A DNA stretch of 64,000 bases, from the NCBI GenBank assembly GCA_973895155.1, contig OZ316895.1, positions 24,681,538-24,745,537 on the forward strand, given 5' to 3'. This document shows, in pieces, positions 27,266 to 64,000 of the stretch. The stretch comes from Marsupella aquatica (Eukaryota > Plantae > Marchantiophyta). How positions within the stretch are numbered: the stretch's first letter is position 1; each line of letters opens with the position of its first letter. The notes beneath the pieces are model-generated. The model had not been told where the DNA came from. It searched no databases and worked only from the letters and a program-made list of their open reading frames with translations. The translations under genes and the position numbers were made by a program.

Positions 27266-27504
27266 ATTTGCATTTTTGAAATGCACATGCGCACTCATGA
27301 AGTGTCATCTTTTATCCTCTGAATGCTCTTCTGGTAAACTCAATATCGATATTGTTTATGGAATTAGCACATAAACTTACCAAAATGAATGATGGTCTCT
27401 CTATCCTCCCATGCCATACAACTCCCTAGAATAGCCCTTCAACTACTCCTGCTCTCCACTAGGGCTTGCATTTCATACCACACCATGGAATAGCCCTCCA
27501 GCTA

Positions 27505-28765
27505 CACTCTTTACAGTATTTAGTCTCACACACTCTAATTAGTGTGAGGTTATATTTGAGGTAAGTGACAGTAATTAAGGTGTGTGACACTAATATGGTA
27601 TGACACTAATTTTGGTCACAAGTCAATTAGTGTCACACATCTAAGTTAAAAAAATAGAATGGACAATAGTGAAAATTTGCTTACAAAAAAATTAAAAATG
27701 TGCACAATATTTGATTACGGGTTACAAAATTTATTACCCAAACATTGAGAAAACACCAGAAACTTATAAAGTCTCCATCCATGTACTACTCAAACATTGA
27801 CCAAACTTCAGAATTTATAACTCCGTCTCACATAGCACAAAATTGTATTTTTGGGTACTCAACCACATTGAGCAAACAAGATATGTTTAATTGATTCACT
27901 TCTATCAACTATGAATAACACATGTTGTCTCACATAAGCCACAAACTAACATCATTTTCACTCTCCTACAACCTGTCCCTTGTGGCTCATCCTTGCAAGA
28001 CGGCGTATAACCCCAAGAGAAGTGGGTTGAGTTGGCTCTTCACCTGGTTAACCAACATCAGGAGCCACTTCAATAGTAGCATCACTGTTAAGGCCAACTC
28101 GACTCCCTTCAAAATTCACTTGATTACTTGGCTATGATATTCTGAAGCTCAGGTGTAAGTTGATTTGTAGACTATACAACACTGACATTTAGAGACAAAC
28201 TGGTGTTTATATTTGAATTTTGTGCATAAGACATGCCATGTCTGTCAACATAACTGTTCACTTCAGCTATAGAGTCCCTTGCCAATGTCAAAAACCAATG
28301 TTGGCCTGGATTTATCAATTTCCCAGATGTGCCGTGTGTCCCAGTCCCCACTTTTGTTGGGTCTTCATTTATCATTTTTTGAAGTGTAACAAGGATCGGA
28401 TAAGCCAAAGGAGACACAGATTAATTACCATGACATTTTGACATAGTCTCGGGCATAGTCTTGATTCTCTTTCCCTTGCTCTAGAAAATCCAGCTATGAT
28501 GACAAGCTAAAACACAAAGAACCTTTCTAAGAAATACACACAAAGAGATGTCGTTGGTAGTCTGGATAACTTTGGAGTGGGTCCAGTTTAGGGTTACCAC
28601 CAATAACATTGTCACCTTTAGTTATCAATATTTTTTAGTATGTTAATTTATTTTTCAAAATCAGGCGTGGCGGTAAATAGTGTCACTTGGCTGAAAATCA
28701 AGGGCTACCCCTAATTAGTGCGTGTGACACTAATTGTTTCGTGACACTAAATACTGTAAAGAGTG
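27505..28765 (-). mobile_element. Internally deleted Tc1/mariner (pogo-like) DNA transposon, ~25-bp TIR, TA TSD
   Basis: TA|CACTCTTTACAGTATTTAGT(C/G)TCAC ... GTGACACTAAATACTGTAAAGAGTG|TA, with subterminal gtgacactaat repeats. The minus-strand fragment (PGQHWFLTLARDSIAEVN...LSLNV...QL.PELQNII) resembles a transposase C-terminus. Confidence 0.8.
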
Positions 28766-38200: not shown

Positions 38201-38682
38201 TTCCTGGTATGTTGCTCACACCTGGCCAGACATGTTTTTGCAACCTATTTCAGCAGGAAACAAGTTTTCAGAAGCTGATTTCACCTCATATACATTTTTC
38301 CAGACTGTCAAGTAGAATTTAATTTTCTCCCAACTTCCCAAAACGTCAATTTTCTGCAGCACCAGATTTTTAAATTATTTGCATGAACTTGTTACTACTA
38401 CACTAGACCAGGGTTGCTTAGGGAGAGGATCCCAGCAAGGTTCCCAGGGCATCCAATACTTGTATACCATATTTTGGATCAGAGAACATTGACTGTTATT
38501 GGGAAGCATAAGATAAGAGAGTGATGGTTGGGGGCAAGGAGCACTTTATAGGAGCACCTTCAAGAATCTTGGACTCAAATCCCTTGCAGCACTTATTACG
38601 GTCAAAGAGCCATGGGAGTACATATGATACCTTTCTGCGAAGTGCACATCAAAAAGTAATACCATAAGGTGTACTGTGCTAT

Positions 38683-39965
38683 TAGGGCGTGTCAAAGCAC
38701 GGCCGTAACTCAGTTACGGCTTAGGACATAAATCACTCTTATGGCCTGGACATAACTCCTTATGGGGTACCTAGAAAGGTGCCGCGTAAGTCTCATACGT
38801 CCTAAAGTTGTATGTCCGTAGGGTGACGACCGTCCGTTTTTTGGAGAAGCCAGAACGCTGCCCTGTCACTAGTCACTGCAATGCCCGCCCACACTTGTGG
38901 CCCTTTGACTCGTTCCCCTGTGGTGTCGTTCGTTGTCTCCTACAAGGGCCAACAAGTAGCCCCTACAATGGTCTGAAAATGTGATTGTCATGCAAAGATT
39001 TGCTCCGTGAAGCTTCAAATAATGCTTCAATCTAATCAAACTAGCTCTCACAGAAAACAAATGAGAGAAGGAGAACGAGAGTGACCAAATGCGCTGATTA
39101 GCAGAGGCCTTGCAAGTAATAGAATATCAAGCTTGGCTCTGAGGAGCTCCATTCTTCGGTTTAGAGGTTTAGATTCACTTGGCGCTCTCTCTTGATCAAC
39201 ACAACGTCAAATTGTGGTCTGACTCCGATTACCTAGAGTCATCAGTCTCTTCTCCCAACACATTGTAACGTCCTCGATGAATAACAGTCTGATCAGATTT
39301 GGTTTTCCTCCAGCATTGCCTGCAAGTCCCTATGCTGCATAATTCTTTCGTTCATTCACCGGCCCACCTGGAAAATCATCGGTGAAATTGACGTGGGTTC
39401 ATTCGTTCCTCCTTCCGCAAAACTTTCACTGGCAGAGTGGCACATGCCACTATGCGTACTTATAGTTTACCACTGTGTGGCATTCTTCACTCGCCACTCG
39501 TGCAATTCACCACGGAGAATGGAACTCATTCTGGACTTCGAGCGGACTGCGAGCTTACTCCGTCCTAAGAATTGAGATTCAGCTGGTTCCTTTGATGAGC
39601 ACAAACGAACAGAATGATATGTAATTCAGGCTCTGAGCCAAGACGTTGTGGCACAGCAGAGGGACCGCAGGACAAATTCCTCCCAAGGTCCAAGTATTGG
39701 AGAAGAGAACTTGAATTGAATTTTGTAAAGCTGATGGAGCGGGGCAGAATGGCAGATTTTTCTTTAATGGTGAATGGTGGCCCCAGCAGCAAGTGGTGTC
39801 TGCATTTGTCACCAGCCATAACTCCAGTTTCTACCCCGTAAGGAGGTTTTACGGGAGGTGTCAAAACCTGTCGCTCTTGCCCATAACGATTCCCGTAACA
39901 TATTTTATGGATTTCTTAATGAGGGACACAAGGCAGGGCTTACGGCCATGCTTTGACACACCCTA
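38683..39965. mobile_element. hAT-like non-autonomous element, ~26-bp TIR
   Basis: TAGGGCGTGTCAAAGCACGGCCGTAA ... TTACGGCCATGCTTTGACACACCCTA. No clear TSD. A second right-end copy (tttgacacacccta) lies at 40875-40888. Confidence 0.7.
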
Positions 39966-39989
39966 GTGGCCACAGGTCCAATGGACTGT

Positions 39990-43598: not shown

Positions 43599-45229
43599 CC
43601 ACTTTCTGCATTCAGCACAAGGAATACGTGGTTTAAGGAATACAGTGTTCCCAATTCAAAAACTGACTAGGACGAAGGAAAGTAACGAGTACGTACCATT
43701 TCCTAATACTGCAAGCACAACCTCTCTACTTAGTTCTAGGAGGGAAAAACCGATGCAAACGCCAGATTTGTCCATTTCGCAACATTACCGAGAAAACTTA
43801 GGAGATATCGTAACAAAAGATCAATCCGGAAGATTCAAAAACAGTTTTCACCCAGAAATCCAGTGAATCGGTTCAGAACAAGAGGGACTAAACATAGAGC
43901 AGTTTGGTGGAAGTCGCCGAAGGACTCGAGTGACAAAACAGTGTCGCACGCCCAGTTGAATTGCAGATTTATTTAAATCAAGAAAATCTCGCAACAGAAA
44001 TCAACCGATGCTTTGCAAGCTAACGTGAATGTGCAAAGAGGCATGAAGTAAGGGAACATTCCCTAGTTGGACGGAAAAAGAGAAGATTGTACTCCTGAGT
44101 ACAAAAGTACCTCTCGGTCCAGTTACGTTTCTAATAAGTACGCGACCAAGCATCTTGCTAGAGTGACATTTCAACAGACACGGCCGCTAATGCTAACACA
44201 TGAGCTACTCCTCTACTGTGGAAGGATTCAGAAGGCATCAACAGAAGTGGTAGATGACTTTCGCCCAACTTGCAAACCAGAGACGAGGAGGAAGCAGCAG
44301 CAAACCTTGACGCCGCAGAGAGACGCATGGTCAGGGCGCCACACAAGGCAGTCATCGCCGTGAAGTACTCCGCGTATGAAGAACCTCCTTGCCGAATCGT
44401 GGAAGAAATTTCCTAATTGGCAATCTGCAAACAACTACTGTAGAGCTGGATCCCAACAATCAAGCAACATTGTTGAGCTTCAGGTCTGTCCTCGAGAAAT
44501 CCTCGCGGGAAGCAGTACCTCCAAAACCCTCGATAAACCTTGTTGGACAGATCGATCGGGACAAGGTTCCAAAGTTGGAGGTATTTGCTTGATCTACCCT
44601 CAAAATTAAACTTGTTACTTGATCTACCCCTTGAGGTATATGAACGGTCCAGATCTGAGATCGAAAGGTACATCAATAATCCAGATTTGGGAAAAGTATC
44701 GAGGGCGTTGATTTAGCAAACTTTTTTCAGAAGGGGGTCTACTAAGCATATCCTCCACGAAGTTGAGCTCTGGATGTTTGAAACCAAGTTTGCTAGCTAA
44801 CTGGTGTTATTTAGGGTAATTTCCTCCAATTAGAAAAATGTACGGTGATTTTTTTCAGTCGCACTGGTGTTATTCAGTCTATTTTCCTCCTATGAAATAC
44901 AACTACAAGGAAATTTTTCAGTTGCATCAGGATTTTGTTTTGGGTTGTAACATGCTACAACTACCCGGCTCTGGGATGCACTCTCAAAGGAGGAGGTACC
45001 CATCTTCATCGTCTAAAGTGGGAGACTGAGAAAGTTCCTGAGCTCTTCCCAGATGCAACTTTTGTTTTTTGGCGGTTTGAAGTTTGAAATATATTAAGGA
45101 CTTACTAGAGGGGGATGTTAAATACACCCCACCTTCCCTATCTTCACCCTAATTTAATAAACCCACCCCAAACTGACCTACCCAGGTCATTACCCATTTC
45201 TCACTTCCAAAAGTTTTCAATCAACAAAT

Positions 45230-45795
45230 TTTGACTTTCAATTTCTCCCATGACATGGGGCTGAATTGGATTTGATAGAAGCAATTTGGAAAGATATTTG
45301 CAAGAAGTCTAACATTGTCAACTTTCATTACAAACTGAGAGAGCAACGAAGTTTGAAAGATTAGCTTGTCATTCACTGTACACTTCTCTCATTTGTGAAA
45401 GTTTATGAATATCAACTTTTTACTTTCAACTTCTCCCTTGATATATATAGCAACTTGGAAAGATCTCTCCAATAAGTTTGATATAGTGAACTTTCACCAC
45501 AAATTGAGAGAGCTATGAATTTTCAAATACTACCTATCTGTGACTGTACATCTTCCAAAAGTTTTGGATCAGCAATATGAGCTGTTCCAATTCCCCTTTG
45601 ATGTGCAGCCCAATGGGCTGTTCTTGGGTTCAAAGCACCTTGGAAGAATTTTACAACCAGTCTAAAATTGTGAGCTTTCACTACAAATTGAGACTGAGAG
45701 CTATGAATTCCCAAAGATTGCATTGTCACTCTCTGTACATTCTTCCTACCTCCAAAAGTTTTTTCTCAGCAAATTCAGACTTTCAATTTCTCTCT
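45230..45795. repeat. Degenerate ~175-bp tandem repeat (3 copies) at the insertion site of the large MULE
   Basis: ctttca..acaaa.tgagagagc.a.gaa.t...aa.a...ctgtaca recurs at ~45320, ~45490 and ~45673. Confidence 0.65.
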
Positions 45796-46505
45796 TGCAC
45801 GGGTATGATAGCCATGACAGAAAACAGAAAACAGAAAACCTGTTACCAGGAAATTTTTTGCTGTTAACAGTCAAATATAACTGTTACCAGTAAGCGATTC
45901 TCTGTTACCAGTTTTGCATCAACCATAGCCCTTTGGTCCGAATGAAAAACTACGCTAATCACAAAAATTTTCTGAAGTGAATTAGGTTTAAAACAAACAA
46001 TTATTGTGTGCCATCCGATGGATGAAGAGTACTAGCAATCCTCCCTTGCAACAACATTTTGATCTGGAAGATAACTGAACACGGTATGGGGACTATACTC
46101 AATGAAACATTCATTCAAATATCACTATTCGTCCAAGCTAAAAAGTGAACCTTAGGGTGGGACCCACCACAGAACAAGTGAAGAGTAGTGTCCAAATGAA
46201 CTCAATCAAAATGAGTTCACTTAAATGGACCGAGTACCGTGACAAACAAATGACAAAACACCTCCTAACGATTTATTTCAGAATAATTGAATAAACGTGG
46301 CTTGAAAGATAAAACATAATGATATCAACTTACACATTTTAAATAAAACATAGTGTAATGCTTACACTACACGCGTACATAATAAAAGCAGCGCCCGGCG
46401 CTAACCAAAAAATACTGAATAAAACAAGTAACATATCCGTTGGGTAAAGACAAAATAGTGACTATCCGTTATATTGAACGACCTATGCGAAAGTTTCAGC
46501 CCCTA

Positions 46506-49500
46506 TTATAAGCCATTCAAGTTCTGCCTCTCCAAGACAAGCCTGACTTCGCCCACAGTCAAAATTGGTTGGCTACAAAGAGTCGACTCCTCAACCTCAA
46601 GTTTGAAAACATTTATGTACACCCAGTATAGATGTTTACAAGGCATGTACGACTTGCCACGCAAATGTCGTAGGAAGAAGTCCTCACAAGAGCAAGCAGG
46701 GAAGATACAGATTTGCACGAAGTACGTGCTTGGTGATCAAAGGTTCTCATGGGTTCGAATTGAAATTGCTTTCCAAAAGCATTTCCAGTCCGAACATTCC
46801 ATTCCCCATCCAAACTCATCTCTTCTTGTCGTGCAAACTCCATTCGCTTAGTGTGACCCACAGTGAGATTAGACCGAGGTCTTGAGTTCCTCCCATTCCG
46901 ACTACCCAGTCGGACATTTGGCTCCAAAAACCTTATTGTTTCTGGGAACACGTTCACATTTATCCTGAGGTCAAACAAAGATGGCGCAGATCGACTCGAT
47001 CCTGTTGTTCGGGCTAAGACAAGTCCTTGCTCTTCGAGGAACGTGATTTCAGAAGGAGATAGGTTTGTACCCTTCAGAACAGGCAAAATTTCAGGAAGAG
47101 GAGGAAGCTGATGAACACCACGACGCGGACGACTCTTATAACAGGTTTGGTTTGGGCAGAACCAAATCATTTTGGAGATCGGTTCACCCCTGAAGAGATG
47201 ATGGCCCTTCACGACAATTCCAACAACACCGTCAAACAAATGGAAGCCAACCTTCTTGATACGATTTCGACAGTCATCGCGATCAGAACTCCCATTGAGT
47301 GTCCCGTTACACTAGGGACCTGTTCCATACTTGGACGTCCGTCGCAGCTACCACTGCCCCAGAGGGACATCCTTCTCGAGCACAATCGTGCGTGAAAGTG
47401 GATTCTGAAGTGAGGCTGGTGCACTGAGCGGAGGTTTTGTGGATCTTGTTGTACGGGTTGTTTGAGGGGTATTGTCCAATGAATCAGTATCACCATCTGA
47501 TGTGTCCATACCAGAGAGATTCACCACTCTTGTCACAGGATCATAGAATTTGAGGGAATGGAGGCAAAGTCAGTTCTGTTTAGGTTTTTCCTTTTCAAAC
47601 CATGAGTATTTGGTGTGGTTATGAGAACGGTGTCATGCCGATGGGAGTCTTGTGGAGAGACAGTCCCTTTTGCGTGTCCCTTTCTCTTCATTGACTTGGT
47701 CACGATATCTCCGTTGAGGGGAGTACTTCTTTCCAAATCGAAGTCCGCCGCGTTGGAAAGAGGCATGTTGGTCGCATCTTCAAATAACCTCGGCAAACCT
47801 GCTTGATCGGCGGAACGGAACGCCAATTCCCATATAGTCGATCCCTTTCCTCTGTTCAACCCTTTTCGATATGCATTGTATCCCGCAACTTGAGACAGGG
47901 CTCGGTTTTGGTCCACTTTGCATGCTTCAAAAAGATCAACTTTTTTCTTTGTAGCCCAGGCTTTCATAGACGCATGCCTTGATTCTGACCCTGTACAGTT
48001 TGGAATCAAGGCACCTTCTTCTGAGCTTTTGCTCTGCCATAGTCCGAATGCAATAATCAGTACTAGCATTGTATTACCAGCGCCCGGCGCTGGCTCCGAC
48101 AAGTATTTATAACATACGTGAAATACAATTTAGATTATGATTCTGGAACTTTATGGACATGTTGGACTCAAATACGAGCAAATCATACCAACGCCTGGCG
48201 CTAATATAAAGTTGATGGAAATGAAAGACAAGAGAGGAGATGGATGTCATACCACTCGAATAAAATTGCCCCACTGGCGCCATCAAACAACCCACTAGGA
48301 TATCCAGCTTTGTAGCATCATGAGCTTTCCAGGGACACAGTTTCCTGATTGCCACCAAACCACAATCTCTCGGGACATGCGATACGCTACCACAAACGTT
48401 GGAGTGTTTCTTAGTTTCTCCCAAAGTCTCCGATGTTTCGATTGACATTCTTCGAGTACTCCTTCCTTGGAATGCGATGGAAAGATTGATAAAAGTGAAA
48501 TGCATCAGAGCGCTCCCTCTCTGGGTCTGGGTGTCCACCAAAAAAAACATTTCGCACAAGATTCCGTCCAGCTTGTGCATTGTCCACCATAAACCCTTGG
48601 ATGACAACCTCCTGTAATCCATTCTCCTTGCAAACCTCAATTATAACTCTCCAAGCCTTTTCGAAAGACTCAGTGTCTTCACCTTTCAACTTGCATGTGA
48701 AAACTGTACAAAGTGCACGGAAGTTATGGTCGTAGACATGCGCGCTAAAAGTAAACCAATCGGTTGTGATACGCTGCATCACATCAAAACTGACCCAGGC
48801 TCCTTCGAGTCTTCCACCAGGTTGCATCTGTCTCAAAAGATCCACACCGGAACCGTGACCCTTCGTGGTCATTTTAAAGATGTGAGGCCTGTCATCTTGA
48901 CATCCCTGACCCAGGAGCAAATATCTCTGGAGAAATGACAGGTTAATCTTCTTCTGCATTTGCGAGAGAAAATCAAGTTCACCCCGACCCTTTTGGTCTA
49001 TCCTAACGCTCCGACAAAGAGATGCAAACTTCTGGGGAGTGGAAAGTACCATCACAGACTTCCATATTTCAGTTTCTTCGATATCAACCATGTCGTCAAC
49101 ATGTTCGCAGAGAGCTTTCACTATGGACCCTGTAGCAGAATTCAAGATCCCAGCTGGTTTTGCCAGAGGATTGGCTTCATGATTTTTTTAATTAAATCCT
49201 CAGCCATCTTCTCCGCACTCCTACAGAAGGTTTTTCTACCTGGATGATTATGCTCACCTATATGAATCGCCAGGCGGGACATATGACTACATGTTTCCAC
49301 ATCAAGTAATACTTGCGGGTACATATAGAACAAACGGGCAGGGCAGTACTTGACACAAAAAGGAATCTGATCACAATAATGACACACAACACCGCCCTTT
49401 TCGATAAAAGATCCGACACCATACTGACCACTAAGCTTTGGAGTACCCTGCCATGCCTTAGCATTTGCCTTCTTCTTCCTTTGGAAGTACTCGCAGGACT

Positions 49501-50236
49501 TGTTCCAACATTCAATGAATCCCGTACAGGTAACCTTACCGAATTGCCAAAGTTTTTTCGGCTGAACGTTCGCAGTAGTTGGAAATATGTGTGTCCAAAT
49601 GTAGCAATCTTTGGCACGGTCCATGTCCCTAAGCCTAGAGCCTTTAGAGAGCATCTTGTCAATGGGTGGCAATTCAAACACGACGTTCCTGTTGTACTTA
49701 GTTGGCAGACAGGAGACTTGCTCATGTCTAAAATCACCCGTTGATATGAACCTCGATAACTCGCTATGACCAATGGATTTGAGTAACGTATCCATTGCAC
49801 TCCGTCGATACACGACCTCCAACTGGTTAGAGCTTCCTGGAGTCTCACCTTTAACGATAGCATGTTGTGGGACTTTCATTTTCAACGTAGGACTTGGAGT
49901 GTGATCCCCATCTTCACTAGAAGAAATCTCGACAACATCAAATGGAACTTGGGGGACACTGGACGGTCCTTCATGTTGTCTTACTCGAAGTGAGTACAAA
50001 ATCCCCGCGTATAGATGCCAAAACCGTTCACCATCATCCACATTGAATGTTGCTGCATCTTCGATGTCATCACTGGTTTCGAGCTCTCGAACAATGGCCT
50101 CAATATCATTCATCCTCAAATCAAATCTCCCGCAAAGGTATCTCTCTCGGACCTGCTTGTACGTGTCTTCCATAGGGACGGGGATGGTCACAATATCTCC
50201 AGTCCCGAATCGGGATAGAACGATGGACCGAGACAT
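46506..50236 (-). pseudogene. MULE transposase: GCM-like zinc domain, DDE core, C-terminal SWIM finger; disrupted
   Basis: N-terminal C..C.N..C...C..C...CPAR...H.GEHNHP. DDE core VSFDVM, FMVDNAQAG, DAFHF, then PNCTGSESRH after intron 48252-48034. SWIM finger CSCEDF...PCKHLYWVY. Frameshifts (~49185 and others) and TGG->TAG / CGA->TGA-type stops. Confidence 0.88.
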
Positions 50237-51199
50237 TGCAATCGAAAACAAATAACGAGGGCTGTAATGTTTCGAGGAAGAAAAGTCTATGGTAATATGG
50301 AGCTTATATCAGTCGAACATGGGAACTTCACGTTAACAGATCCGTTTGTATAAGACATAAAACATAGTCGACATAGGATCTGTTGGCGACATAAATGATT
50401 TTTGTCGTTTTTCCCCGATAAGTCCGGATCTCAGACGCATACATAATGCCAAAAAAGACACCACAAAAATCTTTAACAGACTCTAAGATATTGTATAGTT
50501 GGAACAATTTGAGTAGCGCCTGGCGCTAACTAAAATGTCTCCAACATAATATGCCCCAAATCTCGATATTTCATACTAGCCCCTGGCGCTAGTATACGAA
50601 AAACCCCTCCAGATATCCATCAATACTATGAAATAATTGGATTGAAATGATCAATGAAAATGTGAATTCTTTTAAAACTATGGATGAAAAATACTCGTTA
50701 TCACTAGCGCCGGGCGCTAGTATAAGATGCAAGTAATGTTTCCCAAAAACCATTAAAACAATAGACATTTCTTTAAATATGGGGTTGTTTTGATGAAATT
50801 TATATATTCGAGGCACCATTTAAGACCTATTCTATAGCTGTTGTTTTTACTAGCGCCTGGCGTTGCCATGACAATCATCCAAATTATCTACTTCAAGGGA
50901 TGTTGTTTATAATAGCGCCCGGCCCTAGTATTCCAAGTGAGGGAGGAAAACGGTCATAACGGTAACATTTAACGGTAACTTTTGAGTTCCGTGTGTGTTA
51001 CGCTTCTTCTACCGCTTGATTTAGCTAATTAAGTTCTCAGCATACATACATTGGAATCCGCCAAACTTACGAGCTTCTCGCTTTAATCGAAGAGTTCCGC
51101 TGAACTCCACCTCCTTCTAGAATATATTACACATTGAGAGTTGATTAGAGTTCCATAATTTCATTGTACGATAGTTCGTACGCTTCTGGAAGGAAGACG

Positions 51200-54100
51200 A
51201 TGGAGGTATTCTCCTGTCACGCGATTGACATGGGTCTTAACACCAAAGACGTCACTATGGGTGCCAAAACCATCTCCTTGTACCTGAGGATCACGAAGGG
51301 ATGCTGTGAAGGCCGGTAAACACCAATTTATGCCCTTAACACCAGAATATCATAACAAGACTCCGTCACACATCACCCAAGCTCAATCCCTAAGAACCAA
51401 GGTTGGGAATCAGATCCGAGCTCATGATAGTTCTGGTGAGAAGGAGTCTTCATATCGGGCCCGTACACACAGGGCCTAGCGCTACGGTGCGCATAGGTCT
51501 ATACGTATGCTTACTGTCATAGGTATGTTTCTATTCCGCCGCCGGAATGTACCCATAAACCAGTGACTCTTGACTGATTCCCGGCTTAGGGACTTCTAAG
51601 CCATTGCCCCACCACTCTGCCATTCCACTCTCAGCAATCAGAGCTATGACAGTCCTCACCCAGCCCGCTTCAATGCACCCTGTACACCTCTCAGTGGCGC
51701 TGCTAGTCCCATCATACACTTAGATTGCCTCACACACACACACATCCATGAGAGAAATGAGGCCTGAGAGGAAAACTCAATTAGATTCAACGATGTGCAC
51801 AATAGTTCACTGAGAACACTTGATCCGAACAATAGGCCCGAAGGCTGTCTACTCCAGATTGCAGCGTGCTTGCCCCGCAAGCCCCATGCTTGCCATGCAA
51901 GCTCAATCCTGAACCTAAGCCCGGCTCACTCCAGATTGCGACTGCATATTGGACTCAAACCAATCCCGTACTTGCCTTGCAAACTCAATCCTGAACTCAA
52001 CCTCCTTCATTGCACTTCATTCTTGGGGGCACATACAGATCTCACACCTCCAATTCAGAACGTCAAGTTACGCATACATAGTTGACTCGACTTCAAAGCT
52101 GGTACCAGGCCTAACGGCGATCTACCCCAGACTGCAATGAGGCCCGGCCTCACGCTTGCCCTGCAAGCTCCGCTCTGGCCATAGATCCCTTAGTGCTCTC
52201 CACCAGACAAAGGCCGGGACTCCCCATGGATCACGTAGCCTTGCCAGACTGAACAGTAAATGCTCCTCCTGCTGCCCCTCAATCAGTGTCTCAGCCTCCC
52301 TAATGTGCTCACCACAAATCAAATTGACATCCTCCCCACAGTTTACAATCACCAATACATCACCTATCACCAAGGCTCTGTATCGAGAGAAAAGAACCCA
52401 GTTGTGCTACTCACTAGAAAGAGCCACAATCCAGCTCGCAAACCTAGCAACCCGTTGCTGTGAAGCTTGGCTGATTACTCCCTGAGTAATAGCACAACCA
52501 AGCTCTCCCCCAACACGCAGCGTCCAAGTCCAGCCTTGCTTGCACAGAGCTCCTCCCTGCTGCTCAGTCTAAGTGAGATCACACAACTGAAGTCCCCCCC
52601 CCATCTCTACCGGGGGGCTGCTCTATATACTCTCATACTGAGCCCAAATGGCTGGGTACTACGCTGCTGGAGCCCCATCCCAGCCCTAACAGAGTCGCCA
52701 CTATCTCTAACTACTGAACCCTAACTCGCAGCTTTATTTCTATCTCGAATTGGCTATGTACTTCGGATTTGGCCCTCCTCCATGGTTTTCGCGAGCTTAC
52801 GCCTCCTCTCCCGATTTCTGTATTCAACCATTTGCTGCGTGGATAGCAGCGTTGGAAGCGGCTTGAGCTCCTCTTTCCAACGAGGTCAATTATAGCCCAT
52901 TTGGTCAAATACACAGAGAGTTATGCCCCCGCAACCGAGAGGGGGTACTCACTGCTGCGCTAACCCGAGTTACATAGCTAACCCGAGTTCGGCTAACCTA
53001 GCTATCCTATCTAACCCGAGTAGAGCTAACCCGTGGTCTCGGGTTAGGCCGCTACCCGCTATCCGCTAACCTAGCCTAAGCTGAGCCCGAACCCGAGCTT
53101 ACCTATGCTAACCTGAGCCCGAGTTTAGGCTAACCCGAGTTCAATCTAATCCGAACCTAGGTTAAGCCTAAGCTGAAGCTGTGCTGACCTAAGCTAAGCT
53201 GAAGCCGTGCTCACCTGAGCTAAGCTGAAGCCGTGCTCACATAAGCTAAGCCGTGGTCGAGCTTGGGTTAACCCGAAACTGAAGCCGAATCCGCTAATTC
53301 CGGCCATAAGTTAACCCGTCACACTAATCAGGCCGTATCTCTCTTAATACACCTCCGTTTCCCGAGTGTTTTATATCGATTTTACTCGCCTTGACCAGAT
53401 CTTTCCAATGCTCTTTACAGATCCGAATTTGGTGACATATTGAAAGAGATATGGTCGTCGACCACCCGCGATATAGTTTTTATTTCCCTACTCTTAACGC
53501 CATGATTGCCCTTATTCTTGCCATCTTGCTAATTGTTATGTAATATCAATAGCTACTCCTTGCATATAGCAACCTACTTAATCAGATTACAAAATAAGGA
53601 CCATGTCATTGGCGTCACATCTCCTCTTCATCCAGAGGGTATAGTGTTGTTCCTGACCAAGAGCGAGCTTATTTTGAATCCTCGTAGTCTTCGTTTACTG
53701 GTTCAGTTTATACACGTCGTGTAACTCGTTCCACAAAGTTGTTGCCTCCTACTTCTGTTAGCGCTGTTTTGGTTCCTAAATCTCTGGGTAGAAAGATGGA
53801 GAACCTCGACACGATTGCGATCCAAGATGTTTCGGACTGCGCACTCGCAGAGACTGATCTCATCTCAAAACATGTCATGTGTTTTGGAAAGGATTCTCGT
53901 GGATTTGACAAGGAGCCGCCTTGAATCCCTCTATGCCGATTGGTTCATATGGAGGTGGTTCGTACTTTGCAGAAAGATAGCTCTTCCATCGAGAAGCTAA
54001 AAGACTCATTTCGCAGTATGGGTTACAATTCATCCATAGGAATGCGTTTCTATGTGCAGCCAACGGATGAGAATGGAATTGTTCTGACCTGTACCCAGGA

Positions 54101-57100
54101 AATTCGTGAGTCATGGGATCCAATTTGGCAATTGGAGAACGAGAAGTTTGAGGCTGAATGCAAGGCTGATCCAGATTTTCTCGTGTTGAAGGATAAGATG
54201 TTCTCTGTCTTCGATGGAAATCACAGGCTGTACTCATGGACGCTTGTTACCGAGGAGAACCCTGACAATCCAAAATACCATCCTTGAGTGCTCTGCACAA
54301 TATTTAAGGGAGACAAGGGATCTCTTATTGAAATTGAGGCAGCTATGCACACCGTGAATCAGTAAGTTCTCATTCTTTTCCGGTACCTTCTTTGAATCTT
54401 GCGAGTGTTCTATTTAAGAGCGCTTGGCGCTGGTTATAGATAAATTGTACTTTGACTCTAACTCGCTGCATCTCTTCGTGTAGGCTTGGCCAAGCAGTTG
54501 TTGAGCCATCTTGGATTCTCGATGCAGATAGAATCAAACTAATTATGGCGCATGACCTTGAGTATTACAGTAAACTGATTGACCCGTCTAATTTCAAGAA
54601 GTTTGAGAGCATTCGGCTAAAGACTCGGAAGGGGTCATGGTATACAAAGAAGATGCCACAGGAAGCTCTTGTTTACATTCTATGTGAGAATAAGATAAAG
54701 TCCTATTCTCACCAATTCAAGCTTGACATGGAGGCAGCTGAGGCTCAAGGGAGTCCCTGGTCGGTGGACAAGATTTCCAAACGCCATGCGGCCATGATGA
54801 AGGACGCAACCAAAGACTGGGCAGTGAAGTCATCAAAAATTACGCCCTTGTTAAGTCCTGAATTTGAAGATTTTCTTAGTACATGTGCAAAAATGTATGC
54901 TGTCACAGAGAGAAACAAGAGAGAGAAGAAGCCTGACGACGTCGTATGTACAATGGACCGCGCCCGATTGTTCACTGCTGTTTCTGCCCTAGACCCAAAG
55001 TTGCGGAGCATCCTACTTATGGCACATTGCAATCCTGAGCTGCGGAGACAGTTTTTCCACCCGGCAAGTGTTAACGACGACCCAGTCAAACAATGGTGTC
55101 ATACTTGGATCACTTGGAATAGTGTAGAGGGAATTGTTGTCGGCATGTTACATTCATGTGTGCGTGAAGTAGAGCAAACTATGCCCGCCACTAGATTGGA
55201 AGAGTGGAATTGTGGTTCGTTTGATGATCTTGTTCAGTTTGTTACAAATGAATTCAAGAGATATGGTGATTCTATGAAGAGTAAGTTCTTTCACACTATG
55301 TGGCCTTCAAAGTATCCAGACAAAGAAGACTATACCCAGAAAAACCAGAAGCAGGCTAAAAGGTATCTTTACAGGTTCTACATGCACATGGAGGTAACCA
55401 AACCTGATTACTTCTGGGCATATCCTGCAGCTTTCATGAAGTGGATTACAATAAGTGAGGATGATGCCATAGCTGATTTGTACTCCATGTACCCAGCAGA
55501 GGGCATATTTCCTCCAAGACCTATGACAGAATGGGAGAGAACTCACTGCCCCTAGTATCTAGATACAGATAGATGGGATTCTCCTTTTGATCAAAGGGAG
55601 AAAGATGCATTCCATAAGCTTTCAAAGTCCCACATACCAGCAAAAATTGTGTCCGACATGAAGCAGAGCCTGCTAGACAATGTAGACAAGTCTGCCACTG
55701 ACTTGCAAAGTATCTGTGAAACGACTATTGTTCATGTGGACCGAAGTCGCAAACCTCGAGCGAAAGCAAAAGCGGAGTTAGCAGAAACAAGCGAGTCAAC
55801 AAAATCTGGGAGGAAAAGTGAGTATAGTGTTCCCTAGTATGGCCAGCGCCTGGCGCTGGCTTGAATTATCATGCGAATTCACATTTCTTTCTACATTCTT
55901 AGGCCTTTGTTGTAACCTAAGTGATTTGCATTTGGTTAGCGCCTGGCGCTAGCTTGTTTGAATACTCAGGATTTACTTGTTCTAACTAGGACCTATTGGT
56001 AATTTAGGAGGAAGTCTAATACTGCGGGAACAAGAGATACTAAAGTGGATGCTACACCTGAAGTTTCTGAGGCAAACACCGGAGCTTGATCGGACCCCAT
56101 TACTCCTGTCGACAAGGGGAAGGTAATAGTTCCGGTTGACGCCACAAGTACCAGGAAGAAACGAAAGAGAGCTATCAAAGGTGGACCTTCTTCAAGGGAG
56201 AGTGTTGCAGCATCTGGTGTCCAACGTGAAGTTGGAAACTTCAAAACTAGAGTGTCTTGTCATGCCATGGTTGAGACAAGCATATCCGAATTTTTGACTC
56301 GACTTTCAACAAGGGGGAAAAACCTGAATGGGTTAGTAATGTGGAGAAGTGGGGGAAGGATCTCGTTAAGTCGGGATATAAAGAGAAGGGTGTTGTGCGG
56401 GGAGGAAAAGAAAGATCATTTGGAGTGGATGCGGGTTTCATTTACCTACCAACCGGGTTCAAACCAACGATCATAGATAAGAAGGTTCCTAAATGGAACA
56501 CTCCAGATCAGTCCATGGCTAGATCTTTTTTCAAGTCCATGGATCCATTTCTATCAGATGATGGATTCCTTGCAATTCTACACAATGGGGAGTATGATCC
56601 CATGTCTCAAGTCATTGCTGCCTGTCAGGAATCGAGAAAATTTCAGTGCATATGCACGCATAATGTTGTAATGTCTGTCCCGATGTACGCGGCAAAGACA
56701 GACCGTCAGGTAATCATGTACTCTTAACTATGTTGCATTTTGAAGTATAACTTGTTTAACCTGGAGTTGCCAACTAACACTTGGGATTGCTTTCCGCAGA
56801 TGTTTACCCTCAGGCTGGACATATTTGGTTGAATTAATGGGAAATGCAAAATTCCCAAAGACCCTAAATTCCGTCCACTCTCCATCAGTGAGGACCCCTC
56901 GGTCACCAATTTGATCGGAGTCCCTTCTCTCAAATCCGATCCATTCCCGCAAATGGCGTTTTCTGGAAATGCTCGCCTGTCTGTTGGGTTTATGCAATCT
57001 GTCATTGAGCTTGTCACCCGACCTCATCATATTTTTATGGATTGGACCGCAGGGGCTGGAAGCTCCTTCATTGCTAGAGACTTCTCCAGGAGGTTTGTGC

Positions 57101-57788
57101 TCGGGATAGAACATAGAAAAGAATTTATTGAAACCACTTCGAAGATTTTCATGGATTTGTTGTCTCCCAAAGAGATTGCACTTTTACCTCCACCTATGCC
57201 TATTGCCGACAGAAAGAAGCGAGATAAGCTTTGGTCGGTACTCAATTTTGATTCTGATGATGAGTCCAGTGAAGGTGGAGATGGAGAGGAACAAGGTACA
57301 GGGGACTCGGAGGAGGAAAAGGAAGAACCTTGTCGATCTCCTGATGAAACCGATAGTGATGACTCTTCCGAGTAATGTTCATAAACTCGTAAGCTTCTTT
57401 CTCCATTCCCGTCAATTTATAACATTGATGTGTTGTTTTGGAGAAAGGCACCTAACTTCCTGGATTTTGTTTGATCAGGTCAGAGTGGAATGCAAGGAGA
57501 CGTTTGAAACTGCGAAGGAGGGTTGCTAGACACAACATAGAAACACCAGAAAAACCTTTTGTTCTTCCCTCCTATGTAGAGAAAGCCGCAAGGAAAACCG
57601 AGAGCACAAGGACGCTTTGCTGGGAAAACAAAGGTCTTCGGTTACGAAGGGGTGTTGGCAGGAAGTTCATTAAACATCCTTATGTTGATGACTTCTCCCA
57701 CAGCCAGTACGTAGATGATGAGGTTGTGTCCACGGACAAATCCGAGAGTACAGATTCTGGTTCCGAATCAGAATCTGTAGAATTGTGA
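51200..57788 (+). pseudogene. Element-borne spliced gene: ParB/Srx-like N-terminal domain plus C-terminal beta-class (N4C/N6A) DNA methyltransferase-like domain; disrupted
   Basis: The ATG at 51200 continues in frame across the solo LTR into 53625. Motifs IPLCRL...VFDGNHRL (54213); VDAGFIYLPTG...PKWN (56443); VIELVTRPHHIFMDWTAGAGSSFIA...RFVLGIE (57040). Introns ~54362-54483, ~55818-56007 (phase unresolved), 56710-56799, 57372-57478. Stops at 53685, 53922, 54285, 55553, 56087, 56830. Confidence 0.75.
51215..53619. mobile_element. 2,405-bp solo LTR with 5-bp TSD TCTCC, inserted in exon 1 of the ParB-MTase gene
   Basis: TGTCACGC...GCGTCACA termini. TCTCC at 51210-51214 and 53620-53624. No gag/pol coding. 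Internal gctaacccgag repeats. Confidence 0.9.
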
Positions 57789-59456
57789 CATGTATTGAGG
57801 AATTTAGGGAGTAATTTTTTACTAGCGCTTGGCGCTATTGTCTTCCCCCGAACACAAGCCCCGGGCACTATATTCGAATAGTGAGCCAAGGGGCGCTCTA
57901 TTCGAATATAGCGCCCAGGGCGTTGTGTTTGAGTTTGAAGTCAATTATTTTATTTTTTGGACTTGTGGCGTTGTGTTCGAATTGTGGCGTTGTGTTCAAA
58001 TTTAAGGTAATGTGCTTGAATTTTGGCTTTGTGAGATGCATGTAGGGTGTAAGTAGGAATGATAGACATAGAAGTTATGTGTATTAGAGAGGAGTGTGTT
58101 CAAGTTTAGGTTTTTTGACTTCCCAACAATATTTGCTCAGGTCAAAGGATGTGTAGCTAAATAATTGAACCACTGAAATTACACAAGGGGAGAAATCAAA
58201 TTTCAATAGTAAACAAAACCTGACAAACCATACGTACCAAGTGTACTATTATCATTTAGTAAAACATATTCGTCCACTTTTCACAGTTGTTTGGTTTACT
58301 GTGGCCAATTTGCTCGTTTCTATTATTTAATCTTTTATCATGCAGCCTGGAATGTTTGTGAGACTGCTTTGTTTCTATTGGAGTGCCTTGATCTTGAGGG
58401 CAATGGAAAATTGAAAATAGAGAAAGTGAGTCATCAGACCTAATTATGCACATAGGCACTATGGGTTTCTTTGACAAGACGTCGTGGCGTCAGTCAGAGG
58501 TTGATGTGAAAGTCCGTTGAAAGTTCACAAGCACAAGAATATATTGATACTTTCGGATTGCTGCTTAATATTTTGGAAAGAGCACACACTTCTCTGAGAA
58601 TGAAGTATTTTGAAATTAGCTTACATTTCTCAAAGGACGATGGATTTCGCAAGTTAAAAGTGCGGATGAGTCGGACGATTTTAAGTAACGTATTGTAGTT
58701 GCAACCCAGTTACCTTTCTCCTATAGTCACTTGTGCATTTTCAAACACAAAGTCAATTTCGAACACAACGCCCGGGCGCTGTGTTAATATGGCGCTGTGT
58801 TTGAGTGAAAACATTTTTTTTGCCTAAAGTCCCTGTTTTGACCATATTCAAACACAACGCCCGGGCGCTGTGTTCGGGGGAAGACAATAGTACCAACTTG
58901 TATTCAAATCCTCTCATTGAGTCCTTATAAATTAATGCCTCATTCCTTGTGTTTTTTACAAGCGCCAGACGCACGCCAAATGGTGATTCATAAAGTGAAT
59001 ATTTCCGGCTCTTATTTGTTTAACATGGCCGTTTGGTCTTTGTCGTGTCCTACCAACGGTCATCAGAATGAGACAAATAGTAGTCAATACATAGTATAAT
59101 ATACGTTTGGGATACCAACGGCCATTTCATTTAGGTCCGTTATTTTTCCAAAGAAACCCACATCGGCTGTATTCAGATGACATTTTTGGATCTCTAGGAT
59201 GACATTCGGATCTCTTGTTGACAACTTTTTTGCACGACATTTTTGGATCTCTTGTTGATGGCATCTCTCTCAGACAACATTTTAGGATCTCTTTTTGACG
59301 ATAATTTTCAAGGACGACACTTGTCACGGACGACAAGTTTTTGGACAGGCGACTGTTTTGAGACCGACACCCGTTTTCGGCCCCTTTGCGGACTTTTTGC
59401 GTACATTTTTTGCATTTTTTAGAGGGGAAGTTGCCACTAGATTGGATTTATTAAAC

Positions 59457-60250
59457 ATGGAGAGAAACGGTAAGCTCATGGATTGGGAGGCAGCGTTCCT
59501 CCCTTCTCGTGTGCGTCCGGAAGAGAGCCATTTCAGTTCTTTTGAGTCACGGATGGATACTGAAGAGACTGAAACCTCTACTTTCCTAAACCGTCACGCT
59601 CTACCGTATGATGAGACTATTAGTCCTGGAGAAAAGAACATCCCGTGGATCGTCGATTCTCCACCGCTCCCATTCGCAAGCAGGTTCTCGTCTCATGAGG
59701 TTGTTCCTGTTGATGGTGTACTGCCAATCGATAGGAGAGTTCAAGAAATGTTTGGGCGAGTTGACTTTAAGGACAGTAACATTCCCAATGAAACTTATAC
59801 GAGGGCAGTGCGTCGGGGTCCTTTTGAGAGATACATTCGATTGCGTGGTCTTGGATTTAAGAAAAATTGGAGGAGAGAAGCGGCTGGAGTGGAGGATGAT
59901 TGCAACTCTGAAAGCTAGATGCAATCACTTATTTGTTGTTCCTCCCGTTTTTCACAAAGAACGGCATCGCATTGTTCAATTTGGTGATCACTTTAAGCTA
60001 GCACCGAGCGTTGCTTAAGCTCTTTCGATGTTTCAGGATGGAGTCACCCTCGGCTTAGTTTTTAGGGTTTTCCCCGGATGTTGTCTTCAGGAATTCCATA
60101 GTTTTTCCTGCAGTTGTTGGCTGGCGCCCAGCGCTGCTTTTGTTTTACTGGAAATCCTCAGCCGGGGTCGACCGTGGCTTCTGTATATCAGATTTCTAGG
60201 CCTGCAGGTTTTAACTTATATGTGCGTTTTTTGGACCTGCGCCGAACGCG
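59457..60250 (+). pseudogene. Third ORF of the large MULE, unknown function, frameshifted
   Basis: ATG 59457 opens 153 codons (MERNGKLMDWEAAFLP...). After an apparent frameshift at the A-run near 59862, a protein-like frame continues (KIGGEKRLEWRMIATLKARCNHLFVVPP...*ALSMFQDG...GCCLQEFHSFSCSCW). 3' end uncertain. Confidence 0.5.
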
Positions 60251-63200
60251 TTATGTACTTTGCGATTATATATGGCAGTTTTATTTTTCCCCTACGCATT
60301 TTGACATATATTGGTCTCGGATTTTGTTTATCTCAATTGTTAGACGATTTTATTTGTTGTAAAATACATGATTCCGTCTAGTCCAATTTCCTTTCACGCG
60401 AATTTGATCGTCTTAATTTCTATACCAATAGTTTGAAACACATATTTCGTCCACTTTTTTCATGATCATTGTTCACTGCTACCCAAACATTGTTCATTGG
60501 TAACAGTTTCTTTTTGCTGATAATAGTAACTGTTTGCTGTTACTGTTATTTGTTTGCTGTCGTTTGTAAATTCCCCTCTTGCACCCTAAACCCAACACTC
60601 CTAACAATGGAGACAACACACATAATAGATTTGAGGGACGTCTGTCTCCTGCACCTTCTCTATGTCATGGATCGTCTATCAAACACTCTCCCCCTTCAGT
60701 GACATAATATACAGTTTCTAAAGATTCGCAACTAGTTTCCTGCTAAAGACTACACAGTGTTACTATGCTTGAGAGACAGTTGGCTCGTCTTGATGCTTTC
60801 CACTGGATAATTTGAGAGCCAACGAGAGAAAAAGTTGTCCAGATTGACAGCACATTTCAAGATTTGTTTGTGTAACGTTACAATGTTGGGTCAAAATGGT
60901 ACTCCGTACACATATAAGCAAAGTCTATCTACCCATGAATCCTATGCCTTATTCTCTCACAAGTAAAAAACTAAGAGCTTACGTCCTTGTGATTGGAACC
61001 CAGTAAAGTATTGAGCTTCTTCCAACCCTTAGTGATAACTAAGAGCTGAGATTTTCATTCAGAGGAATCCACCTACTCTTAAATCCTCACTTATTCATCT
61101 CTCCAATCTTCATCTTCAAGCTGTTAAATTTTGTGCCCTCCCCTTAAACCACAACTTGCCCTATATAAGGGGAAGTGTCCAAGATCTCCCGCTTTTTCCA
61201 CATTTCAATCACTGTTCTCCTCTGCATGCCAATTTGGTCCACAATTTCAGGAAAAAACTCCTTTTTATGGTAACTATGGGTAACCATAAAAGTAGGTAAC
61301 TACGGGTATTGGTCTTACGGGTACCATACGGTTGTGGTTTAAGTTATCTACAGTAAGTTTGAAAGCTTAGTTACAATCCCTGATATGATTTTCTTTGTCA
61401 TCTTCAATGGACAGGCACATCCAATTTAAATGTAGAGAGATATTTCTGAGTGGTACTATTTACAGATCGGTGATTTTATCTCCAACATTTTTGTGGCTCA
61501 GGTGTCCAACAAGCATGACAACAACATTCGGGGTAAATATGTTGAGTGCATGTGATAATGCGGACGTATTTGAAGGTTGCTTCAACAAAATGAACAACAG
61601 CACCCGTCCAAAAACGAGACTCCAACCTGCCTCGTAAGCTTCTCCCTCACATGCATCATATCCTCCGGTTCTTTAATGTTTCTTCTGCACAAGGACGTCT
61701 GGTCCTTATGATGAGCTTTCTTGGTGATGAGGCACATCGCGTTATTATGGATCAGGTAGCTTTCCTTTTTGTATGTAAGTTTATCTTGGAGGCTACTAGA
61801 GAGCAACTGCTTGACCCCACCAAACAGTTGCTCGCTTGCTATGGTGATGCCAAATGTGCACGAATAAGAGTGACCCTAATCAAACCTGGTGATTTCTCTA
61901 AAAATCCTGTTACTAGACGGAGTTGGAATCTCAATGACAACCCGACTGCTGAGTCTGCCAAAAGCAAAGGCATTTACGTTAATCAAACACCCCAACGTGG
62001 GAGAGGACATGGGAATTACACTTGGCGTCCCAACACTCCTAACAATGGAGAAATCACACATAATTGATTCTAGGGACGTCCGTCTCCTGCACCTTCTCTA
62101 TGTCCTAGATTGTCTATCGGACGCTCTCCACTTCAGTGACATAATATACAATTTTTTGAAGACTCCTGATATATTAGCATCTGTTGCACATTGATCAAGA
62201 AATGTTGAAACTAAGTCAGAACTTCCATATAGAATGTTTCTTTACGTTGTTAGCAGTAGAGTACCCATTTTTACATCAATAGGTTGTGTTCCTTTGACAT
62301 CGACGGTTTTATCTATATGGATTGTTGTAATCTCCTGTCCATGCATCTTCTAAAGTTATGCTGTCAATTCATCTTTACATCAATCTAGTAGGTTGCTTAC
62401 CCACTGAATTCTCAATTCTACTGTTTTCCTTATAAGTCCCAATAAGTAAAAACTTTGGCATAATTTCTTGATTTCCGCTTGTTGCTATCCTGGTTGCTAT
62501 ATATCTAAGGATCCATTGTTGCTTTCATTTAACTTAACTAGTATTGTATGCTGGTCCAGATGACTAACAGCTTACTATATTGCCTAATGGTTGACGCACA
62601 TCACCCAAAAAAATGATCGAGCCTCACTCCACTTTATCCATCTCTTATACACCAGCCGAGCTTTTGAATGGCTACCCCTTCACAATATCTTTTCTGATTT
62701 TTTCACCATGCTTCACAACAAAGACCTGACCCCTACATTAGACTCAGTCTGTTTTGGATGGAAATATTTGGAATCTATTGCTACATTATGCTATCATCCA
62801 ACACAAGTTTTTTGTTACTTCAACATCGACACACTATTATCTACTGAAACCTTACATATGCGGATGCCACTCTAAAACGGTTCATAGAATTCCTTGATCC
62901 ACTAACAAGATCCAAAACCCAGCTACCCGAGAACGCAGACTATAGCCATGTATGCACCACCGACCTTCGGATCATTCACGACAAATTCCTATGAACTGCT
63001 CTCTCATTTGGTCTCAATCACATTCTACTTCAACCCACCAAGTTTAACAAAGTTTTCCAGGGAATTCTTCGCGGATGGATACTATTATGCTCATTTCTCA
63101 ACTTAGAAGACTCCCTCACTGACAAAGGAACACGAGTACTCCTTGACATTTGCTACAACTACTGGATGGCAGGGGCTCAATGCAACACCGGTCGACATCG

Positions 63201-63694: not shown

Positions 63695-64000
63695 CAGTGT
63701 TTTCCATCAGTCCACCTGATATTAGTCGCCACATCATCTCAAAGAGGCCGCCAAGTTGAGGCGGCCAAAAATTTGGTGTCCGTATCGTACGGATATCACA
63801 TCTCGGCGAGACCCGTCGAGATAGTCTGATGTCCGTATGATACGGACACCAAATTTTGTCAAATTTTTTTGGGGGATTTTTTTGGGGGGGGGGGGATTTT
63901 TCAAAAAAAAATTAATTAATTAATTATTTTATTTTTTTGTTCTTACGCCAATCTCGGCGAGGTCAGCTGAGATTGAGTCAATCTCAGCTGCCCCAACTAA
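63695..64000. mobile_element. Probable left end of a hAT-like element with an internal hairpin, truncated by the window edge
   Basis: Starts CAGTGTTTT, has GC-rich subterminal repeats (atctcggcgag) and a 90-nt foldback at 63768-63857. The other end is not visible. Confidence 0.45.

Follow-up and report, generated by a model that had tools for sequence, protein, structure and literature searches.

A decayed copy of a conserved transposon accessory gene, with a predicted methylase fold and an altered catalytic motif, in a probable Mutator-like element of the liverwort Marsupella aquatica

We analysed a stretch of 64,000 nucleotides of the liverwort Marsupella aquatica (the window; contig OZ316895.1 of assembly GCA_973895155.1, positions 24,681,538 to 24,745,537), in which a large gene at 51200–57788 lies within a probable Mutator-like DNA transposon, head-to-head with the candidate transposase gene. 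It is an accessory gene of a type conserved among transposons, present here as a dead copy. Its C-terminal domain is predicted to have the permuted beta-class amino-methyltransferase fold, and the catalytic motif of this fold is altered throughout the family while the motifs of the S-adenosylmethionine (SAM) site are retained. Moreover, the non-coding DNA of the element contains a dispersed 15-bp palindrome, which we tentatively suggest would be the binding site of the accessory protein.

The original prediction, made from the letters of the window, had let the gene begin at 53625, which turned out to be the edge of a solo long terminal repeat (LTR); the reading frame opens at an ATG at 51200. 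Contigs from public sequencing runs connect 51209 with 53620, and 51212 with 53623, thus copies without the LTR exist, and the LTR is bordered by a 5-bp duplication, TCTCC, at 51210–51214 and 53620–53624. The parts of the gene are the following.

51200–51214, + strand: start of the accessory gene, first five codons; with the LTR removed they are in frame with 53625.
51215–53619: nested solo LTR, TG...CA, 2405 bp, which splits exon 1 after five codons.
53625–54361, + strand: remainder of exon 1, with the ParB-like motif region at ~53925–54300 and DGNHR at 54213; stops at 53685, 53922 and 54285.
54484–55817, + strand: exon 2, a domain of ~400 amino acids; stop at 55553.
56008–56709, + strand: exon 3, a low-complexity linker and then the first half of the predicted methylase fold with the altered motif IV (YLPT, 56443–56454); stop at 56087.
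56800–57371, + strand: exon 4, the second half of the predicted methylase fold with motifs X, I (DWTAGAG, 57040) and II (GIE), and behind it an acidic tail; one stop, at 56830.
57479–57788, + strand: probable exon 5, a basic and then acidic low-complexity tail, behind a GT-AG intron of 107 nt in matching phase.

The four introns are all GT-AG (122, 190, 90 and 107 nt), and the gene lies inside a transposon, so that the earlier description of an intron-bearing, transposon-borne gene was borne out. The exons total 3670 bases in the window copy, and adding the 4-nt and 1-nt differences found in other copies gives 1225 codons; judging from the splice phases, all exons probably encode one fused protein of ~1,220 residues. 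The edge of exon 1 coincides with the end of the intact relative P0077, which has Arg at both TGA places, and the relative P0001 spans exon 2 at 47–48% identity with the same exon edges and a Trp at the stop position. A further relative, L001, is 64% identical over 113 amino acids of exon 1 and joins exons 1 and 2, with identities of 46–64%. The window copy is dead, since its frame is interrupted by six stops and shifted twice, once near 56006 and once within the run of T at 56291–56295, both assigned to exon 3; each stop is one C-to-T or G-to-A step from a sense codon. The original prediction, which had suggested restoring the stops to sense codons, did not mention the two frameshifts. A further frameshift considered at ~56330 was dismissed, as spanning contigs show no gap there.

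The solo LTR has a summed contig depth several-fold above that of the remainder of the element and is far more abundant than the element in the public runs, and it holds short tandem repeats at 53080–53260. Some contigs in three public runs lack exactly the 90-nt intron 3 (56710–56799), as an intron-less subfamily or a processed copy would. The middle domain encoded by exon 2 received no family assignment from Pfam or ESM Atlas; two relatives from metagenomes conserve it at 47–48%, and blocks such as KGSWYTKKMP and HCNPEL are invariant. A reading of it as penicillin amidase (ESM Atlas score 0.84, 81 of 256 features) was dismissed because it lay under the threshold of the tool. No viral or prokaryotic locus was found among the relatives of exons 1 and 2. 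A word-index search with exon 1 at longer lengths gave none among 847 candidates, which is weak evidence.

In the C-terminal part, motif IV precedes the SAM-binding motif I, which is the beta-class order that the original prediction had read, and the residues D-A-G-F-I-Y-L-P-T-G (Y at 56443), then LSDDGFLAI, then FMQSVIELVTRPHHIFMDWTAGAGS...VLGIE (D at 57040) are present as it had described them. The residues encoded at 56833–57189 matched M1.HpyAVI (PDB 5hek) with E=3.5e-4, the C-terminal piece matched the NCBIfam model PRK13699 with E=1e-3, and in ESM Atlas the same piece reached a best score of 0.94, and 24 of its 30 hits there belonged to the PF01555-only set. Pfam PF01555 gave E=0.15 on exon 4 of the window copy, and its gathering score of 26.7 bits was reached neither by exon 4 (12.5 bits) nor by the relatives P0004 (23.5 bits) and P0052 (24.5 bits); at E<=0.01 it matched 20 of the 64 members of the family alignment. 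HMMER found 75 cluster representatives related to the C-terminal domain at E<=0.001, and of 30 proteins looked up (28 of these 75, together with P0001 and P0077) six carried an organism name, five from Calypogeia fissa and one from Riccia sorocarpa, both liverworts. When the 64-sequence family profile was compared with PDB, all five hits were beta-class methylases (best E=1.9e-6), at identities of 11–17% between the family and its PDB matches.

The same fold was indicated by structure prediction. We used P0004, which is 35% identical to the window copy, as a modelled relative standing for it, and its AlphaFold model had a predicted local distance difference test score (pLDDT) of 75.6 and a predicted template modelling score (pTM) of 0.70. 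The top Foldseek hit of this model was CcrM (E=5.8e-7), and the hits included M1.HpyAVI, M.BceJIV, METTL3, M.RsrI and M.PvuII, with modest template modelling scores (TM-scores) of 0.3–0.46; comparison with viral structures gave the same picture. Profile and model thus both match beta-class methylases, in line with the Rossmann methyltransferase fold for which a check of this type had been proposed, and the C-terminal domain is predicted to be a permuted beta-class amino-methyltransferase fold. The Riccia sorocarpa relative P0052 (KAL3696265.1) fixes the register of motif IV, because its alignment spans positions 2–212 of the 221 of PF01555. In a tree, eight family sequences formed one side of a 100/100 branch against eight phage methylases; this tree took in only relatives that span both methylase halves, leaves the placement of P0052 unsettled and gives no donor.

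Motif counts were made on 40 aligned relatives, 36 of which cover motif IV. At its first position we found A in 11, Y in 10, F in 7, C in 3, S in 2, and R, T and D in one each, such that D, N or S occurs in 3 of 36. The third position is P in 34 of 36, and the fourth is T in 26 and N in 5, with an aromatic residue in none of the 36. Thus the family has xLPT or xLPN (YLPT in the window copy) in place of DPPY or SPPY, and because this does not fit [DNS]-P-P-[YFW], the window gene does not, by its motif, belong to the active N6_N4 methylases or to the writers of N4-methylcytosine (4mC). The SAM-site motifs are retained: the D of motif I in 36 of 38 relatives, its first G in 33 of 38 and its second G in 33 of 39, and the E or D of motif II in 35 of 38. 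The suggestion of a divergent, DPPY-like and catalytically altered motif therefore extends from the window copy to the whole family.

Moreover, among copies of the window's own family, 19 of 24 variable places in 56290–56520 are at third codon positions (p=5e-6), and those inside motif IV are all synonymous. Because the variation is mostly in third positions and silent in the motif, the altered motif has been kept by selection, and we take YLPT, on this pattern of substitutions, to be a stable state of the family and not decay of the window copy. The only relative with DPPT is P0052, which sits on a long branch and may be closer to an active ancestor; this makes an ancestor with a D-type motif, as originally supposed, plausible. 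The specific form DLPT, considered as the recent ancestral motif of the subfamily, was dismissed since no variant at 56443 reached the 25% share needed for listing. For CcrM it is reported that the target amine is held by D and P of its DPPY (PMC10406627), and the change of SPPY to APPA in N4CMT is reported to abolish activity (PMC8885841). Judged from its motifs, canonical writing of 4mC or N6-methyladenine (6mA) by the accessory protein is unlikely.

The identity of the N-terminal part is a motif-level lead. The ParB/Srx superfamily is marked by a G-x-H/R-R nucleotide-binding motif after a beta strand. The claim of a ParB/Srx domain stood as far as the motif is concerned, with DGNHRL in place at 54213 and FDGNHRL invariant in all three sequences compared; as a fold it was not confirmed, the profile tests being negative or giving scores that some shuffled sequences equalled. 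By eye the region resembles ParB/Srx with an insert of ~48 residues, and in the best alignment a helix, a glycine and the motif are in register. Matches to TRAPP, Anthrax_toxA, CagT and galectin were dismissed as chance. We infer from the motif that the N-terminal part may be ParB-like, an identity made likelier by the algal precedents described below.

The transposon that carries the gene has the following features.

45801–60575: Mutator-like DNA transposon, 14,775 bp, of which 12,365 bp remain when the nested LTR is subtracted together with its duplication.
45792–45800: left target-site duplication CTCTTGCAC, 9 bp, one of the direct repeats flanking the element.
60576–60584: right target-site duplication CTCTTGCAC, 9 bp, the other flanking direct repeat.
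45801–45912: left degenerate terminal inverted repeat; it matches the right end over 96 nt with 65% identity (2 x 2.2 kb compared, E=3.5e-5).
60475–60575: right degenerate terminal inverted repeat, from the same comparison.
46600–50236, - strand: broken gene, probably for a transposase of the Mutator-like element (MULE) type, from motifs compared by eye with MULE signatures; 3' end approximate.
46389–60136: 15-bp palindrome TAGCGCCNGGCGCTA, 14 copies with <=3 mismatches, all in non-coding parts of the element.
57836–58888: nested inverted-repeat element with a TA duplication, 52-nt arms 81% complementary; some contigs skip it.
59457–59918, + strand: small open frame of 153 amino acids near the right end, inside the element.

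Mutator elements are recognised by a target-site duplication of 9–11 bp and by terminal inverted repeats that start with G. Here the duplication is 9 bp, GGG stands at both ends, and the terminal repeats of ~100 bp scored 79, against 57.5 for the best of 1049 decoy windows and 77.5 for the best of 300 shuffles. Arms at 46381 and 60102 had been considered as the ends of the element and were dismissed, since both are palindrome copies and the real ends lie further out. Many divergent contigs in four public runs cover all of 46000–60500, which is therefore a repeat family; their depths yield no copy number. The candidate transposase has a Cys/His-rich, GCM-like region (49528–49244) and, after it, two D residues (near 48785 and 48584), DxxH (near 48506) and the E of TGSESRH (from 47994), an order that agrees with that of MULE transposases. 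It has an intron at ~48034–48252, other copies differ from it by single-base insertions at 46761, 48474 and 49182, and it matched nothing in Pfam, PHROG, NCBIfam or PDB. On the basis of the element ends and the motifs read by eye, the label Mutator-like is probable.

Copies of the palindrome TAGCGCCNGGCGCTA start at 46389, 48078, 48189, 50514, 50577, 50705, 50851, 50913, 54418, 55844, 55937, 57823, 57856 and 60122. Besides these 14 copies in the element there is one in the LTR and none in the 49 kb outside, compared with a mean of 0.04 in shuffled sequence. None of the 14 falls within a modelled exon; they are found in introns of both genes, in the shared promoter region and in subterminal DNA (nominal p ~1e-6 given a non-coding share of 37%), and among the first three introns of the accessory gene intron 3 alone has none. 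The centre of the palindrome resembles CCWGG/CCSGG, with the core CCNGG. In the relative L001 the corresponding intron, intron 1, contains another palindrome, AAGCCCNNGGGCTT, in 19 copies and GAGCTNCNGNAGCTC in three, and its exons hold none. The intron of L001 is filled, at 336–1152, by a tandem array of AAGCCCNNGGGCTT with a spacing of ~20 bp. The palindromes, like the ends of the element and the true start codon, had gone unreported in the original prediction.

Accessory genes with ParB and methylase parts have already been reported in transposons of brown and red algae, and by analogy the window gene appears to be a variant of such genes. In Ectocarpus, the element Sola1-1_Ec32 is described as carrying, opposite its transposase, a gene for a protein of 1104 amino acids with a ParB-like part and an N4C/N6A methylase, for which binding to, and modification of, the element that encodes it were proposed (Dinatale et al. 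2025, PMC12477816); the original prediction had not mentioned this precedent, and novelty is therefore lower. The two share a large gene opposite the transposase and a similar protein size, with the ParB-like part in our case at motif level. The comparison is by description, and Sola1-1_Ec32 is a Sola-1 element of a brown alga, whereas ours is Mutator-like with liverwort relatives; its methylase is predicted to be active, whereas the catalytic motif is lost here; and its published description mentions no palindromes, whereas 14 are present here. In red algae, Plavaka elements and Mutator elements, the latter in Chondrus, are reported to carry PAG2, with PF01555 and SET domains, and PAG3, with a ParB-like domain and a 2-oxoglutarate (2OG) oxygenase, and the ParB call of PAG3 is weak too (HHpred E=0.29; bioRxiv 10.1101/2025.02.11.637652). 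Common to these and our element are a PF01555-like part on a DNA transposon, a ParB-like part that in our case is at motif level, and inverted repeats, which in the PAG elements form arrays that adjoin the ParB-like gene. As described, however, PAG2 and PAG3 are two separate genes with tandem arrays, whereas we have one inferred gene with sites that are single and scattered, and neither a SET nor an oxygenase domain was found in the window gene. None of the six organism-named relatives among the 30 looked up is algal.

VANC of the Arabidopsis VANDAL elements is reported to bind short motifs in intronic, intergenic and terminal DNA, and its function was demonstrated there (PMC5735166). In both cases an element of Mutator-like type carries an accessory gene, and its own non-coding DNA contains short motifs that differ between related families; however, VANC has DUF1985/DUF287 and non-palindromic motifs of 8–9 bp, and Pfam matched neither domain in the window gene. 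In fold and motif order the C-terminal domain resembles CcrM, M1.HpyAVI, M.RsrI and M.PvuII, and phage ParB_N-N6_N4_Mtase fusions (e.g. AcaML1 Gp24 and Gp25) have the same two-domain order. The beta-class enzymes and the phage fusions keep DPPY, SPPY or DPPF, unlike the window family, and in contrast to the phage fusions the window gene has ~650 residues between the two parts and contains introns. The original link to MpDN4MT1 of Marchantia and N4CMT of bdelloid rotifers was not upheld, since these have SPPY (TSPPY in MpDN4MT1; bioRxiv 10.1101/2021.02.12.428880) and no relative here does. They are alike in being horizontally acquired beta-class methylase folds in eukaryotes, one of them in a liverwort; but MpDN4MT1a/b and N4CMT are described as host genes with SPPY and demonstrated 4mC activity, whereas ours is transposon-borne and without SPPY, and the word ParB is absent from the main text of both reports (bioRxiv 10.1101/2021.02.12.428880 and PMC8885841). 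The available portion of Iyer et al. (PMC4738411) lists no land-plant clade of such a kind, and the available portions of PMC6446971 and PMC6431247 mention extra genes of MULEs or giant elements and no ParB. In the literature that we searched this liverwort family does not appear; the search did not extend to most subscription papers or to bioRxiv supplements, which may hide land-plant homologues of the PAG genes.

For the function of the accessory protein we lean, at somewhat less than an even chance and by analogy with VANC, towards a self-binding protective factor on the element's own palindromes that would help the element to escape silencing. The accessory protein, rather than the transposase, would bind the 15-bp palindromes in the non-coding DNA, and because beta-class folds are described as usually dimeric (PMC10406627), it may do so as a dimer on the two-fold site. 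Binding would occlude or open sites that contain CpG and CCNGG, and protection from silencing by host 5-methylcytosine (5mC) would spread along the element, as VANC does for VANDAL. In the palindromes 24 of 28 CpGs are intact, with one transition only, compared with an observed/expected CpG ratio of 0.61 in exons, but this count is biased by the definition of the motif. Several further observations weigh against this proposal. The window copy decayed by stops that each fit C-to-T or G-to-A, therefore any protection did not last, and the zinc-finger-like region of the transposase candidate could itself bind the palindromes. The array of L001 is a single case whose motifs were chosen after inspection, and it could be an unrelated nested repeat. 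No relative was found that holds both the N-terminal and the methylase parts, the 75 HMMER matches being 60–453 amino acids long. The ParB-like region of the window copy, of the intact relative and of L001 matched nothing in Pfam, PHROG, NCBIfam, PDB, phage and plasmid searches; its profile score against 154 phage ParB domains was equalled by 8 of 60 shuffles, this ParB profile being narrow; when the insert was left out, 5 of 60 shuffles and 2 of 19 real decoys reached the score; and a single-sequence model of this part had pLDDT 32. A more elaborate form of the proposal, in which liverwort Mutator elements would have a second, independently evolved anti-silencing system of bacterial origin in its parts, with a ParB-type clamp loading at co-evolving parS-like palindromes, a dead SAM-binding methylase fold gripping or flipping cytosines, and protection that spreads, is unlikely.

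The palindromes might instead be sites of the zinc-finger region of the transposase, with a structural accessory protein that serves in end pairing or transposase loading and has no role in silencing, which we regard as somewhat unlikely. One palindrome is ~590 bp inside the left end (46389) and one ~450 bp inside the right end (60122), as this reading would favour, but most are internal, in introns of both genes and in the shared promoter region, and none is in the terminal repeats, which bear a short repeated word of their own. In a 2026 preprint (10.64898/2026.08.24.746577) the AtMu1 transposase alone is said to activate cognate copies, which we count for the same reading. WRKY-GCM1 fingers are described in MULE transposases, and it was proposed that these domains bind and regulate their own elements (PMC1702500). 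It is improbable, slightly more so than the clamp model, that the exons represent two adjacent accessory genes, comparable to red-algal PAG2 and PAG3, or conserved cargo with a function independent of the palindromes. That no protein spanning both parts was found would agree with this, as would the annotated Calypogeia proteins, which start in the linker region, and the exon 2–3 junction, which is in phase only with the 4-nt difference of other copies; however, intron 2 is a GT-AG intron of 190 nt that leaves no room for a promoter, exon 2 lacks a natural stop, L001 links exons 1 and 2, and the Ectocarpus protein is described as a single fusion (PMC12477816). Still less probable is an active methyltransferase with a non-canonical motif that writes 4mC or 6mA at its own palindromes and thereby blocks host 5mC or marks self. 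Conserved SAM-site motifs, an intact predicted fold and the DPP retained by P0052 speak for such an enzyme, a mechanism of this kind was proposed for the algal elements, and the CCWGG/CCSGG-like centre recalls CCSGG, which the nearest bacterial relatives of N4CMT are reported to recognise (PMC8885841); against it, the first position of motif IV is freely variable and the stacking aromatic is missing in 36 of 36.

The nested element at 57836–58888 has related words, GCCCGGGCGC and GGCGTTGTG, in its arms and interior and adjoins a palindrome copy, and it may borrow the palindrome-binding factor. The frame of 153 amino acids at 59457–59918 had no match in Pfam, PHROG or NCBIfam and is possibly a third accessory gene. 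The insertion site of the transposon is the end of a tandem repeat, itself degenerate (45198–45800, units of ~160–197 bp), and a direct repeat with 88% identity lies just to its right (60591–60717 and 62029–62154). More inverted-repeat pairs with the look of small non-autonomous transposons occur at 26116–27266, 27603–28757, 38678–39970 and 63768–63857. Outside the element there are eukaryotic host genes, and 4 of the 85 open frames scanned reached the Pfam cut-off; exons in the window belong to a NOP56/58-type small nucleolar ribonucleoprotein (snoRNP) protein (PF08156, PF01798; 20059–22545, + strand) and an EMC4-like gene (13394–13657, - strand).

VANC is described as the only transposon system for which binding to the element itself, with a change of its chromatin, has been demonstrated (bioRxiv 10.1101/2025.02.11.637652); for the ParB/methylase accessory genes of algae such a role is a proposal, and no binding site has been defined. 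That the methylase fold was retained under selection although its catalytic motif is gone speaks against the view that such proteins function by writing 4mC or 6mA. If our inference holds, the accessory gene of this element would act like VANC or like the factors proposed in algae, and its palindrome, 15 bp long and replaced by another in a relative, is a sharply defined candidate site in liverworts, a plant group that includes an established genetic model.

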